Assembly: GCF_006345805.1 (NCBI RefSeq)
Contig: NC_042999.1
Coordinates: 171,492,001 to 171,556,000 of the forward strand
From: Octopus sinensis
Taxonomy: Eukaryota
Direction: 5' to 3'
DNA length: 64,000 nt
In this document: one piece after another, positions 17,993 to 61,644 of the stretch
Numbering within the stretch: position 1 is the stretch's first letter
How the letters are laid out: each line of letters begins with the position of its first letter
Notes under the pieces: generated by a model
Seen by the model: the letters and a program-made list of their open reading frames with translations, nothing else
Database searches by the model: none
Told to the model about the DNA's origin: nothing
Position numbers and translations under genes: made by a program

Positions 17993-18226
17993 CAATAATA
18001 GAAATATTAAAATTACTAAGTCTCTCTAAAAGAGAACAACGGCAGCGTTCCCGGAAAATAATAGTTATCGCCATACTAATATGGCATTCTTATAAAAATA
18101 AGATAAAGCTGTCCGCTTATTAGCTCCATGAGGCAACGCCTTAAGTTAGCTATTTGATACATAAACTGTATCCATATAACCTTCGAACAAGGGAGGGGGT
18201 CAGTCGCTCCACACTACTTGACCGGC

Positions 18227-18277
18227 AGCTACAGACGCGTTTCGGGGTATTGCCCCTTTTCAATGAAGATCGTAACC
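18227..18277 (-). ncRNA. Type I hammerhead ribozyme, U3-A8 core variant
   Basis: Minus strand GGTTACgatcttCA-TTGAAAA-GGGGcaataCCCC-GAAA-CGCG-TC^TGTAGCT; palindromic stem III ACGCGT as in PLE minimal hammerheads. Confidence 0.8.
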
Positions 18278-18800
18278 AGAACCAGTAGGTGTCGCTTCGG
18301 ACAATCTCTGTTCCGAAGGTTTTATTTACCTAGCTTTCGGTGAATACATCCACTTGTTTTCAATAAGAGAAATATTAAATTCCTAAGTCTCTCTAAAAGA
18401 GAACAACGCAGCGTCCCGGAAAATAATAGTTATCGCCATACAATTGGCATTCTTATAAAAATAAGAATAAAGCTGTCCGCTATTAGCTCCATGAGGCCTC
18501 GCCTTAAGTTAGCTATTTGAACACAAACTGTATCCATATAACCTTCGAACGAGGGAGGTCAGTCGCTCCACACTACTTGACCGCAGCTAATAAGCGGAAC
18601 TTTATTCTTATTTTTATAAGAATGCCATATTAGTATGGCGATAACTATTATTTTCGGGAACGCTCCGTTGTTCTCTTTTAGATATGTAGACTTAGTAATT
18701 TTAATATTTCTATTATGAAAACAAGTGGATGTATCCACCGAAGCTATATATAAATTAAAACCTTCGAACAGAGATTGTCAGAAGCGACACCTACTGGTCT

Positions 18801-18847
18801 GGCTACGCTGCATTGAAAGGGGCAATACCCGAAACGCGTCTGTAGCT
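18801..18847 (+). ncRNA. Second hammerhead copy (inverted monomer)
   Basis: GGCTACgctgCA-TTGAAAGGGGcaataCCC-GAAACGCGTC^TGTAGCT; one A and one C shorter than the first copy (mutation or homopolymer error). Confidence 0.65.
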
Positions 18848-18955
18848 GCCGGTCAAGTAGGTGGAGCGACTGACCTCCCTGTTCGAAGGTTATATGGATT
18901 ACAGTTTGTGTATCAATAGCTAACTTAAGGCGATGGCCTCATGGAGCTAATAGCG

Positions 18956-19205
18956 CAAATGAAGACACATACAATAGAAGAACAAAATGGCTGACGGTTA
19001 GTAAGGAGGGACACACAAATAAGAAAGAAGAAAGCAAAGGACCACTGATGCACTCGCAGGAGTGTGACGAAAGAACTCTGGCCGAAATAAGATTAAGGTT
19101 AATGTAAAGTAATTAAGATTAATGAAGCAAAGTAATACCAAATATATAGTGCGTGTGTTTTTATTGGCTAAACTGGCAAAATGGCCATTCCTAAATACAA
19201 TATTC
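18956..19205 (+). mobile_element. Non-coding repeat with hammerhead-like motif, same family as 36395-36669
   Basis: 19017-19200 aligns with 36483-36666; CCA-CTGATGC..GTGTGAC-GAAAGAACTC-TGG at 19042-19081. Confidence 0.7.
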
Positions 19206-20070
19206 TTCTGCATACATAGAAAAACAAAGAGTGAAACTGATAGTATATAATAAATATTATGATTTAGATTCACTCCTTATTGAATTATTCGTTAAGCTCT
19301 GAGAAAAATAGGTACTTTACTCCTTCTCTAGGTCACAGATTTACAGAAATCAATTGTATAAAGATTCCTGGCATTCTTATTCAGATAAATGTTTATTTCC
19401 TCATGAGGTTCATTCTAAAAGAACAAGAAAGTGAAATGTACCTCTACTACACGAAGGCAATTTGAATCTTAAGAATCAAGTTAACAATGTATCACTGACT
19501 GTTGGGAGATGTTTCTGTCTGTGGTATAAAATACTAAATCAGTTTAAAGCAATGTACAGCAAATATCAACCATGACAGCTAATGGGATTTTGTTAATCAT
19601 TGAAGTAGTTATTAAATGTTATACGCAATACTATTGAATCTGATTGGGAATGAAGCAGCTATCACTAGTGTAAGATAATGAATCTTATTAACTTAATAAA
19701 AGTAATCAGTTATAACTCAATTATTTTGGAAAGAGTGATATTAATTTTAACTGTTCCAAATAGTATGGCTTCATCTGCAACAAAACTGCAAATTCTATAG
19801 GCAATAGCACACAGGAGGGAGACTCGGGCGTTGTTTAGTTACGTGGAGGTTTGCATATAATCGTGTTCAAAATTTGCAGTTGTATAATTTGAGTGTAAGT
19901 GTTCTGCAGAGGATAAGTAACTGGTCATTAGGTAGAATAGTGTTAATTGCATACAACTTTGTAATAAATTGTGGCTGCATGCGTATGATATGAGTGATTA
20001 TAATGTACCATACACTATGATGGAACATTGTTTATGTTGTATTTTTATAGTGACTGTTTCTTTTATACAT

Positions 20071-20210
20071 ACAGGAGTGGCTTCGTGGCAACATGGTTGC
20101 CACATGGTTCCGAGTTTAAAGACACTGCATAGCATCTTGGGCAAGCGTCTTCTACTATAGCCAAAGTCTTGTGAGTGGATTCGGTAAACGAAAATTGAAA
20201 AAAGTTCGTC
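20071..20210 (+). mobile_element. SINE family B, 5' half
   Basis: CACATGGTTCCGAG..CTTGGGCAAGCGTCTTCTACTATAG..GTGAGTGGATT matches 12109-12230. Confidence 0.8.
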
Positions 20211-20589
20211 ATATTATATATATATAATATATATATATATATATATATATGTATGTATGCATATATATATTGTATGTATGTATGTATGTCGTATGTATGT
20301 ATGTATGCATGTATGTATGTGTATAATATATTATATATATATATATATATATATGTATAATAAATATATGGATATATATGTGTGTATGTGTGTATAAATG
20401 TAGAAGGTTGAATAGAACACACGAGTTGATATATATGGAAAAAAGTCAAGGTAGCAGATGCTAAAATAATTTTATAAAAAATACATTTCAGCTGTAAGCA
20501 TGGAAAACAATAACATTTGGGATAAATTAAAAGGAAAGTTTTTTAAAAGAACATTTGCATAGTATTCAAATACAAGGGACATTTTCCTT

Positions 20590-58941: not shown

Positions 58942-59199
58942 GTGACCAACCTCAAATACTCTTTTCCACCTATGACAGTGACCACATTCAGTCACTCTTT
59001 CTTCCTCCCCGTCCCACCATTACTGCCTCAACATCAACACTACCAAGCTCAGCTAGCACCATTACAACTGCTGCAAGTCTCCAGACTTTACCATTCCGTC
59101 TTACTCTTTCTCTCTCTCTCTCTCTCTCTCTCTCACTCTCTACAGCTTTCACTACCAGAATGTCATCAGAGTAATAACAAATCTAAACCTAAAACTATT

Positions 59200-60000
59200 C
59201 ACAATCTACACATGCGTCTGAAAGAAAATCATAAACTACGACCCCAATCTTTACAAGCGAAGCTATATACTTAGTGTCTATGTTGAACAAAAGTGTTGAT
59301 TTAGCAATAACTGGGTTCTACAGATCATCCTATCGCCACTATTGTATTTGAAAGAATTTCTTAATAATAAGTCTTCATTCAACAGTGCCAATCTGATAAT
59401 GTTTTAATGATGGGTGACTTAAATTTACCCTGTGTTGACGACTCTACCCATACCTTGAAGGCAAGTGTGTGCATATCAACCCCTGGGAAAACAGTTGTGA
59501 AATCACTTTTCGAATTGATGGACGAATTTTCCCCCTCCCAACTCATGCTTGTTCCAATGAGGTTCAATAAAAACTCATAGTAACCACACTAAGACTATCC
59601 ATAATATTTCAGCAGCAAAAAGCACTACTTTTCAATCACAACTTAAATTCTCTGTAGCCTGAGATTCTGGCAGCCAAAATTGATATTGAACGTTCTAATT
59701 CCAAAACACCCTATTGACCTCTTAGACACACAAAATGCTACCTGGGATGCAATCACTCACGATCTTTCACTCATTGATTGGTCTTTCACTCACTCTATCA
59801 CTCTAAACAGCATCAATAAATCATGGCATTTATTTAAGGACATTGTCGCAAATATACATTCACAACTCACCCCACTACTATTCATAAGCAAAACAATACA
59901 TAAGCTCCCACGTAACAGAAGAACATTCATAAGAAAAACAAAAGAGGTTAATCGAAAAATCAATATTGCTAAGTGCAATATACCAAGTAGAGAGATATAG
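59200..60000 (+). mobile_element. Degenerate APE-endonuclease LINE fragment (CR1-like)
   Basis: FYRSS; NVLMMGDLNLPCVD (GDFN-like); QLMLVPMR (QxVxxPTR-like); LSLIDW..INKSWHLFKDIV. Confidence 0.6.
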
Positions 60001-60149
60001 CTTTTCTATATATTGACAGCAGGATATTAAATGAGTTACGAGTAAGGAAAATAACTTCGCTCTTGCATGGATAAATTACTGTAAGGACAACGACAGTGTA
60101 CCACACAGCTGACGCTTAGTACATCTGATGATGCTCAGAGACAATGAGA

Positions 60150-60345
60150 AGATAAACAACTTTCTGGAGAAGAGAATGGGAGAATGGGAAGCTGACATGT
60201 ATAAAGATATCGCTAGGTAACATGAAAATATGCAGAGACATTTTTGAAGGCGACTCCCTTATTCCGTTACTCTTCGTCATTGCACTAATATACTGAGAAA
60301 ATCTAGGCCGGCCTATGAGTTTACCTAATCCAAGATAAGAATGAA
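60150..60345 (+). mobile_element. Short R4/Dong-type RT fragment, ending at the hammerhead element
   Basis: VNMKICRDIFEGDSL..LLFVIAL parallels 870-950. Confidence 0.6.
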
Positions 60346-60349
60346 TTAT

Positions 60350-60407
60350 TACCGTATTGGTCCAATTTCGGGGTTAATTCATAAGAATTTTCCCCTCTTC
60401 AGCGATA
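60350..60407 (-). ncRNA. Type I hammerhead ribozyme (inverted copy)
   Basis: Exact reverse complement of 60891-60948. Confidence 0.88.
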
Positions 60408-60890
60408 AATACGTGGGATATAAGTGAAATACTTACTCATACCCATACTTATGAATTAACCCCGAAATTGGACCGATACGGTAATAACGGATTTTTTAGA
60501 AATTTCTATCGGGTTGTGTCGAGACGCATAAATTATAATGGTTATTGACAATTTTTGTCTTTTCAGCATATTTGGCATTAGAATTTTTCTTTTGCCTTTA
60601 TCTTGTAAATTATTTATAAATTTAACCTTTAAAGGTATTTTTTGATATGCTGGCCATTGATAAAATTTTTTTCCCGAAAAAAATTTTATCCTTCATTAGT
60701 TATAAATTGAATAGTGTTCACTTCCGGATTCTTTCACTCTGTGAAAGTTTCTAGTTCGAATCACACGTGCCTCGAGATGTGCCGAAGATTTTCTATTTTG
60801 GATATATTTGGGGTGCTTAGGTCTGCTCTGGACTTAGTGCTTGCTTTTTCCATGGGTATGAGTAAGTATTTCACTTATATCCCACGTATT

Positions 60891-60948
60891 TATCGCTGAA
60901 GAGGGGAAAATTCTTATGAATTAACCCCGAAATTGGACCAATACGGTA
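60891..60948 (+). ncRNA. Type I hammerhead ribozyme, canonical core
   Basis: TATCG-CTGAAGA-GGGGaaAATTCttatGAATTaaCCCC-GAAA-TTGGaCCAA-TA^CGGTA. Confidence 0.9.
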
Positions 60949-61644
60949 ATAACGGATTTTTTAGAAATTTCTATCGGTTTGTTTCGAGACGCATAAATTA
61001 TAATGGTTATTGACAATTTTTGACTTTTTTTCGGCATATTTATTTGGCATTAGAATTTTTATTTTGCCCTTATCTTGTAAATTATATATATATGTATGTA
61101 TGTATGTATGTATGTATGTATGTATGTATGTATGTATGTATGTATGTATGTATGTATGTATGAATGTTTGTATGTATGTATGTATGTATGTATGTATGTA
61201 TGTATGTATGTATATATAAGAATTTTTGCGTATAGGACAATTGAAAAATAATTCTTAAAGACAGGATTATCTAAAATTTCCCGTGCGTATATTAAATTTC
61301 TCTCAAAATAAGTTAAGAAACTTACATATCTACAGTTTTCGAAAACACAGACGATCAGCTGTAAAACTTTAATATCTACAACATCAGTATATCTATCTAT
61401 CTATCTATCTATCTATCTATCTATCTATCTATCTATCTATCTATCTATCTATCTATCTATTTATCTATCTATCTATCTATCTATCTATCTATCTATCTAT
61501 CTATCTATCTATCTATCTATCTCTCTATATATAAACTATTTATATATATATATATATATTATATATACATATTATGTTTTGTGAAATTTGATTTAGTATT
61601 TCTAAATTGAATTTTTCCCTGTAAGTTCGGAATAATATTCCCTC

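Follow-up and report, generated by a model that had tools for sequence, protein, structure and literature searches.

Six head-to-head fold-backs at (TA)n in an Octopus sinensis locus as probable truncated insertions of Penelope-like elements

What builds the head-to-head fold-backs that sit among TA microsatellites of the octopus genome, many with a hammerhead ribozyme motif on either strand, and what would they do to RNA transcribed through them? We addressed these questions in a 64,000-nt stretch of Octopus sinensis (assembly GCF_006345805.1, contig NC_042999.1, positions 171,492,001 to 171,556,000, forward strand; hereafter the window), which is microsatellite-rich, has a GC content of 34% and holds six fold-backs that we label E1 (17993-18955), E2 (29010-29248), E3 (52928-56120), E4 (60346-61082), E5 (36378-36669) and E6 (36819-37036). 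An earlier note, made from the letters alone, had seen in them a class of ambisense self-cleaving hairpins. Our analyses indicate that they are probably separate 5'-truncated insertions of several families of Penelope-like elements (PLEs), of Hydra type in E2 to E4, together with a 368-nt passenger in E1, all made at (TA)n.

Self-BLAST recovered a head-to-head inverted duplication at all six places, a few bases off the coordinates first given, with the arms joined at their 5' ends in every case (orientation taken from an open reading frame (ORF) or a hammerhead in five, and by analogy in E6) and a combined span of 5,642 of the 64,000 bp. E1 to E4 shared no sequence with one another at E<0.05, in line with the earlier description of four unrelated inserts. 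A type I hammerhead descriptor matched the window eight times, compared with a mean of 0.3 and a maximum of 2 in 60 block-wise dinucleotide shuffles of it, and six of the eight matches make up the outward pairs in E2 to E4; the remaining two, at 16526 (+) and 28232 (-), are AT-rich and probably due to chance. The hammerhead lies near the 3' end in E2, E3 and E4 by this descriptor, as a U3-A8 variant in E1 and in deviant form in E5, while none of the 99 Rfam matches to the window at E<=5 was a hammerhead. The single plan ascribed to four inserts, unequal head-to-head arms with outward hammerheads, was therefore confirmed by descriptor for E2, E3 and E4. For 17993-18955 the claimed pair is present in U3-A8 form with both window copies imperfect, and the two additional candidates, 36395-36669 and 36814-37037, are fold-backs as described, the first with a motif in one arm and the second with none.

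E3, the largest insert, codes for part of a protein:

52928-54470, minus strand: E3 minus arm, with an endonuclease (EN)-coding copy (53832-54470), a hammerhead (53140-53223) and a 156-nt extension (52928-53083)
54471-56120, plus strand: E3 plus arm, with the end of a reverse transcriptase (RT) thumb (54471-54600), an Asn-rich linker and GIY-YIG frame (54576-55376), a hammerhead (55981-56064) and (TA)n

The two arms are 98.5% identical over 1387 nt (17 substitutions and one 4-nt indel), and the plus arm has a 3' region of about 600 nt. Its frame encodes 266 aa with 1,845 relatives at E<=0.001, the nearest named proteins being from Octopus sinensis at 76-81% identity. Pfam gave nothing meaningful for five window ORFs (the E3 frame included) or for three homologs, and a sequence-profile search of the PDB came back blank. 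The predicted structure (predicted local distance difference test, pLDDT, 91) matched I-TevI with Z 9.7 and a root-mean-square deviation of 2.4 over 89 aligned residues, followed by T4 EndoII and UvrC; Foldseek gave E>=0.05 only, yet placed GIY-YIG proteins on top. The 267-nt spacer between the arms codes for an RT thumb end (tblastn with homologs P0002 and P0024), and in P0002, an octopus homolog, the thumb is fused to an Asn-rich linker of the E3 type. Because of the GIY-YIG fold, the thumb end and the P0002 fusion, E3 is, on this structural model, the 3' part of a truncated PLE with a C-terminal GIY-YIG nuclease, as the earlier note had proposed for the large insert; the frame is interrupted at the linker start and the core RT is absent by truncation. 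The other five inserts contain neither an RT nor a GIY-YIG frame. A weak word-index search for longer EN relatives fused to RT found none among 337 candidates, and none of 217 pattern matches to the E3 protein in metagenome contigs was confirmed.

Hydra-clade marks in E3 include a C-terminal EN without CCHH, CxxC before a conserved E and CxH after N, and homolog P0024 has a DKT motif; the N-terminal RT region in which the DKT and RWK motifs of the clade lie is missing from E3. In alignment, the CxCx5C linker is present in P0009, P0012, P0023, P0024, P0063, P0090 and P0142 and absent from E3, with no Cys there in E3, P0001 or P0003-P0006, so that we file E3 as Hydra-like. In PMC8557442 this linker is tied to (TA)n targeting. 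E3 is flanked by (TA)n on both sides despite a linker lacking Cys, in a single insertion for which mobilisation in trans is possible.

E2 and E4 are short and hammerhead-bearing:

29010-29091, minus strand: E2 short arm, 82 nt, with a hammerhead (29042-29079), ending in (TA)n
29092-29248, plus strand: E2 long arm, with a hammerhead of Hydra-type motif (29104-29141) and a 74-nt tail (29175-29248), ending in (TA)n
60346-60446, minus strand: E4 inverted arm, with a hammerhead (60349-60408), ending 9 nt past the predicted cleavage site without (TA)n
60447-61082, plus strand: E4 plus arm, with a partial upstream repeat to about 60610, then a unit of about 470 nt, a hammerhead (60890-60949) and a TA/TATG end

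E2 has a 12-nt palindrome at its centre. Compared by eye with the motifs in File S2 of PMC8557442, its hammerhead has the stem I, stem III and cleavage base of Hydra-2_aMil, its tail resembles the 3' end of that element, and an unpaired pair closing stem II occurs in many Hydra motifs. The E2 pattern had no match in metagenome and viral contigs. The E4 hammerhead is similar in style to that of E2; the inverted arm of E4 matches 60852-60952 at 100% over 101 nt, and its internal direct repeat is 90% identical. From sequence, E2 and E4 are likely 3' stubs of Hydra-type PLEs, and E4 may alternatively be a non-coding unit of about 470 nt.

E1 is built from a repeated unit:

17212-17992, no strand: degenerate (TA)n array flanking E1 on its long (3') side (Tandem Repeats Finder, period 2, 409 copies, 75% matches)
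17993-18589, minus strand: E1 minus arm, 1.6 units of a 368-nt non-coding unit (self-alignment)
18229-18275, minus strand: E1 hammerhead with a U3-A8 core, stem III CGCG, a GUC site and a broken stem I
18590-18955, plus strand: E1 plus arm, one circularly permuted unit (alignment)
18806-18846, plus strand: plus copy of the E1 hammerhead, one core A missing in the window

The unit has a GC content of 41% and a longest stop-free stretch of 71 codons, which bears out the claim of a small non-coding, retrozyme-like unit among the inserts. Within E1 the direct repeat 17992-18231 / 18360-18589 is 92.5% identical, the 5' end of the minus arm follows the predicted cleavage site by 3 nt, and a 4-nt palindrome links the two arms. 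Each arm holds one hammerhead, two consecutive units with complete hammerheads are not present at this locus, and the unit-to-unit junction is found in both arms. The descriptor overlooked the pair for its U3-A8 core, the broken stem I of the minus copy and the missing core A of the plus copy; a U3-A8 core is a natural covariant (PMC3088659), and about 1,300 such hammerheads are reported in Schistosoma (PMC4209133). It was observed separately that the plus arm is almost exactly one unit, with the same unit position at both ends, as if from a circular or tandem template.

We compared 17993-20200 with the assembled contigs of four of 24 sequencing runs, from four studies. The letters of an intact E1 hammerhead, stem I included, predominate in these contigs, with an inserted A behind 18815 restoring the core at a depth of 77,542 of 152,080 in run X2, and indel calls occur at the unit-junction position in runs X1, X2 and X6. 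Summed depths of the E1 and E5 families in run X2 range from 4e4 to 1e6, a measure of abundance and not of copy number. Among the 15 of 40 joints listed, at least 10 are minus-to-plus joints of the E1 family, at depths of 48-359 relative to 52 for the single-copy flank. They fall at differing points, as if every insertion had formed its palindrome afresh. The contigs showed no sites over 17993-20200 where many molecules begin or end, and a joint at 18926-18602 (run X14), considered as a circle signature, was rejected as ordinary unit sequence; run X14 may be RNA, and the cover that it gives the repeat families is not counted here as expression. One further observation is that the arm start at 18589 and the joint 18232-18799 (run X1) lie 1-3 nt past the predicted cleavage site, and that this joint has a depth of 359, some seven-fold the single-copy level, as though copying had run to the end of a self-cleaved RNA. 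E1 is likely a retrozyme-like passenger and a candidate non-autonomous element, with a putative circular RNA and putative self-cleavage.

E5, its older relative beside E1, and E6 complete the set:

36378-36483, minus strand: E5 minus arm, with the shorter 5' end and a 63-nt tail, ending in (TA)n
36484-36669, plus strand: E5 plus arm, with the longer 5' end, a hammerhead-like motif (about 36508-36553) with C at core position 9, and no tail
18956-19200, plus strand: older E5-family copy adjoining E1, 90% identical to 36483-36665
36819-37036, no strand: E6, a fold-back (36819-36927) with a 25-nt spacer and a 109-nt extension, (TA)n on both sides and no hammerhead

Contigs extend the E5-family copy beside E1 to 18953. 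They stop at an inner site and pass into TA in 57 and in 38 cases and continue into one and the same tail in 93, and the first letters of the E5 tail equal the loose-end consensus of these 93; two RT start sites are expected to give contigs both with and without a tail. The opposite-strand joint of the family was seen in runs X1 and X2, which belong to two studies. In the hammerhead-like core of the family (19041-19083; 36508-36553), most contigs have C at position 9 and an extra G, and stem III is non-palindromic; the fold is probably inactive, a dead or variant ribozyme, though the family is abundant. The type I descriptor found no hammerhead in E6. A short insert at 36283-36355, between two TA runs, has 15 nt in common with the end of an E6 arm.

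All six inserts were evaluated for what surrounds them. Seven of the twelve fold-back ends have (TA)>=4 within about 6 nt, compared with 1.6% of background positions (binomial 2e-10, with the ends not independent and the inserts partly chosen for (TA)n), and two further ends adjoin degenerate TA arrays; the right ends of E1 and E5 and the left end of E4 fall below the (TA)4 threshold. The enrichment at (TA)n that the earlier note had predicted was thereby found. Each insert has an extension on one arm (126, 74, 156, 130, 63 and 109 nt in E1 to E6), which was established as element sequence for E5 (by contigs) and for E1 and E4 (by internal repeat); that of E3 begins at a 7-nt TA run. Target-site duplications are illegible in (TA)n, and none was seen by eye at the left end of E4 or the right end of E1. 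Microhomology between the short-arm end and the target amounts to 7 nt in E3, 5 nt in E6 and 0 in E1, E2, E4 and E5, so that pairing of target and RNA is not a rule.

The reading of the six as truncated insertions is carried by their anatomy, the identity of the E3 protein and the family-level joints in independent contigs, and we infer PLE parentage for E2, E4 and E5. Mobilisation by microsatellite-targeting PLE enzymes, as proposed earlier, agrees with the (TA)n bias and the E3 nuclease, and does not cover the origin of E6. The idea of a graded series from PLE to tiny hairpin did not survive, the inserts being unrelated families at differing depths of truncation. For the two arms, we lean slightly towards two-ended priming. 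The element's GIY-YIG enzyme would cleave a (TA)n target on either strand, and reverse transcription would be primed from each of the DNA ends, one complementary DNA (cDNA) starting at an outer site on the RNA, which would give the tail, and the other at an inner site. Both cDNAs would stop early and their 3' ends would join through a few complementary bases, leaving two arms head to head with the element 3' ends outward. The hammerhead, at 9-241 nt from these 3' ends, would hence be copied twice and would be a passenger in the RNA cycle of the element itself. A PLE protein in vitro has been described to cleave and extend both strands, to use two RNA start sites whose gap equals the tail, and to work with a dead hammerhead, a dimer being predicted (PMC11167929). 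The arms of E5 are staggered: the one that extends further 5' has no tail and each has sequence that the other lacks, which excludes, for E5, a cDNA copied back on itself. E3 would be staggered too if its 156-nt extension is a tail. Among literature titles and abstracts, with subscription papers not covered, we found none on a PLE mechanism by twin priming or inversion.

Several points weigh against this account. The arms of E1, E2 and E4 are nested and equally well explained by snap-back, only E5 being firmly staggered, and antisense self-priming (PMC3846280) can also yield staggering. E1, E2, E4, E5 and E6 were not linked to any RT-coding parent, E3 is without the CxCx5C linker that defines Hydra, its 156-nt extension may be flank rather than tail, and tails of 63-156 nt exceed the published 30-40 bp. 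Of the 22 arm 5' ends of the E1 family, two are <=5 nt past the cleavage site (P ~0.04, post hoc), a weak hint of the E1 ribozyme cutting its own RNA. Self-priming, by which either the first cDNA is copied back after folding at a short palindrome or an antisense RNA serves as its own primer (Arkhipova 2013), is put forward in PMC3846280 and fits the joint palindromes of E2 (12 nt) and E1 (4 nt), the nested arms of E1, E2 and E4 and the complete identity of the E4 arms; we consider it possible and clearly the less probable origin, as cDNA snap-back is incompatible with the private sequence in each arm of E5 and antisense self-priming leaves unexplained that both outer ends lie at defined start sites in (TA)n. 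E6, perhaps with 36283-36355, could be a TA-targeting miniature DNA transposon and not a PLE stub, having no hammerhead and carrying the same short motif inward near both outer ends and at 36286-36300; we are doubtful of this, given its one-sided extension and off-centre spacer, which it has in common with the other five inserts.

Chimeric long reads or assembly artefacts, which the earlier note had raised as a check, are a most improbable source. The three unit copies of E1 do differ chiefly by 1-nt homopolymer indels, like unpolished repeats, and no contig bridges the window's own junctions among the matches listed (32 of 32,260, for 17993-20200 only). However, arms differ (by 1.5% in E3), stop at differing points of the element and have short homologies where they join, similar head-to-head joints of the E1 and E5 families occur in contigs of other studies, the unique flank equals a 982-nt contig of run X2 with 0 differences at depth 52, and the window holds two older fold-backs with diverged arms. 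Some letters of E1 may still be assembly errors from unpolished consensus in palindromes.

We next consider what read-through RNA of such inserts would look like. Upon transcription from either strand, an antisense copy comes before each hammerhead, and in whole-insert folds the hammerhead bases pair with the other arm at 38 of 38 positions in E2 and 60 of 60 in E4; forcing the ribozyme in these folds costs 68-84 kcal/mol in all four cases. The arm duplexes range from -62 to -144 kcal/mol across inserts (-143 in E3 and -62 in E1, compared with -7 to -16 for the motif alone), and the active fold of an isolated monomer is disfavoured by 2-10 kcal/mol, all in an equilibrium model of folding. Stems III of E1 to E4 are self-complementary, as in dimer-type hammerheads, and a same-sense partner in cis is missing. 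Since the antisense copy comes first and pairs every hammerhead base, cutting of host transcripts, which the earlier note had expected of each insertion on either strand, is not supported: read-through RNA probably zips into a long hairpin that blocks the hammerheads, leaving host RNA uncut. On the other side, an RNA starting inside an insert would free one hammerhead, and cleavage could occur in tandem E1 arrays at other loci.

A dedicated class of ambisense self-cleaving hairpins that cut host transcripts is accordingly hard to credit. Such a class could draw on the intact descriptor matches in both orientations of E2, E3 and E4, the 5,642 bp covered and the great abundance of the families in contigs. 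Against it, the pair is a single motif in duplicate, either copy being blocked by the complement of its partner, the monomer folds are unfavourable and the stems III of dimer type, joints vary within a family (that of E1), the inverted arm being a published PLE by-product, and the hammerhead pair is absent in E5 and E6. In ambisense, viroid-like ribozyme RNA, independent ribozymes occupy both polarities and each is able to fold, whereas here one motif is an inverted duplicate of the other and the prediction is that they pair. Minimal PLE hammerheads gave no monomer cleavage in vitro (PMC4209133), and frog retrozyme dimers are reported not to cleave in eight of nine cases.

The likelier effect of the fold-backs on the host, as modelled here, is double-stranded RNA (dsRNA), if they are transcribed. 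Under a criterion modelled on PMC5625713 (40 bp, <=2 mismatches, within 2 kb), 3,817 bases qualify, 2,733 of them in the six inserts plus one older fold-back and 1,084 in or beside TA arrays; in this window, all near-perfect local inverted repeats outside TA arrays are in PLE-type fold-backs, a share that overstates the genome since the window was picked for fold-backs. The same paper describes octopus as exceptionally high in dsRNA potential and in hyper-editing, and Penelope as heavily edited in a lizard. More speculatively, and with more doubt than confidence, two-ended priming by (TA)n PLEs, including a Hydra-like family without the Cys linker, might routinely plant perfect fold-backs that together with TA arrays mainly feed octopus dsRNA and A-to-I hyper-editing. 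Among the papers listed in literature searches, no title or abstract linked octopus PLE fold-backs to editing or, Craig et al. apart, described octopus hammerheads. If transcribed, the fold-backs would be ready substrates for ADAR and RNA interference in an animal with extreme RNA editing.

Other repeats in the window include the two older fold-backs. That at 6886-8964 is a head-to-head, decayed RT and EN element with arms 74-81% identical, in which the minus arm has RT and EN and the plus arm begins with the end of the thumb and retains a CxCx5C linker; by sequence it is a canonical Hydra-type PLE. The one at 20614-22594 has an RT-like fragment (21711-22055) in its plus arm, purine/pyrimidine-rich tails and no hammerhead by the type I descriptor. 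A dispersed repeat, 72-85% alike among its copies and extremely abundant in all four contig runs, stands beside TA runs at 12085-12515, 20098-20304, 26480-26897 and 44462-44648 and is probably what we take to be a short interspersed nuclear element (SINE). The frames at 32176-32739 (-), 37207-37767 (-), 3793-4143 (+), 41684-42112 (-) and 14806-15532 (-) are, by eye, presumably retrotransposon fragments (C-termini of long interspersed nuclear elements, gag-like).

How, then, do the inserts compare with known systems? According to Craig et al. 2021 (PMC8557442), EN-bearing PLE insertions carry a 5'-truncated copy in inverted orientation, a tail on one side and a hammerhead near the 3' end, the Hydra clade, including the octopus family Hydra-1_Obim, targets (TA)n, and Penelope-13_HM has an inverted copy with a hammerhead on each strand; likewise, PMC4209133 ascribes dual opposite-strand minimal hammerheads 100-700 bp apart to truncated PLEs, and Arkhipova et al. 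2013 (PMC3846280) report head-to-head palindromes and N-rich linkers in PLEs. The present inserts resemble EN-bearing PLE insertions in the head-to-head copy, partial tandems, one-sided tail, joint palindromes, 3' hammerhead and Asn-rich insert between RT and EN, and differ in tails of 63-156 nt as opposed to 30-40, in being mostly stubs and in having no legible target-site duplication. With the Hydra clade (Hydra-1_Obim, Hydra-2_Amil, Penelope-13_HM) E3 has in common an EN without CCHH, CxxC, CxH, (TA)n and a canonical 3' hammerhead, whereas E3 and five close homologs are without cysteines at CxCx5C; as Hydra-1_Obim by eye keeps these, E3 is another family, one that bears on the role of the linker in (TA)n targeting.

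Mussel retrozyme units measure about 350-390 bp, and animal non-LTR retrozymes have been proposed as non-autonomous PLE derivatives, from PLE ends (Cervera and de la Pena 2020, PMC7229834; Li et al. 2026, 10.64898/2026.07.22.740005). E1 is like animal non-LTR retrozymes in its 368-nt non-coding tandem unit, its type I hammerhead per unit and its great abundance, and unlike them in a minimal U3-A8 hammerhead, a PLE-type inverted arm and the lack of consecutive hammerheads at the locus. In L1 twin priming, primers from both cut strands leave an inverted 5' part joined by microhomology, and the L1 parts barely overlap; an overlap of 43 to 1,387 nt between the arms, as here, requires either two RNAs, one RNA in tandem or circular form, or strand displacement. 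Staggered as opposed to nested arms could decide how PLEs build their inverted repeats, a step called undefined in the literature. The fold-back architecture is already published and the window adds members to it and not a class; what may be new are the staggered arms, a Hydra-like family without the Cys linker in (TA)n, and fold-backs that account for all of the non-microsatellite near-perfect dsRNA potential of the window.

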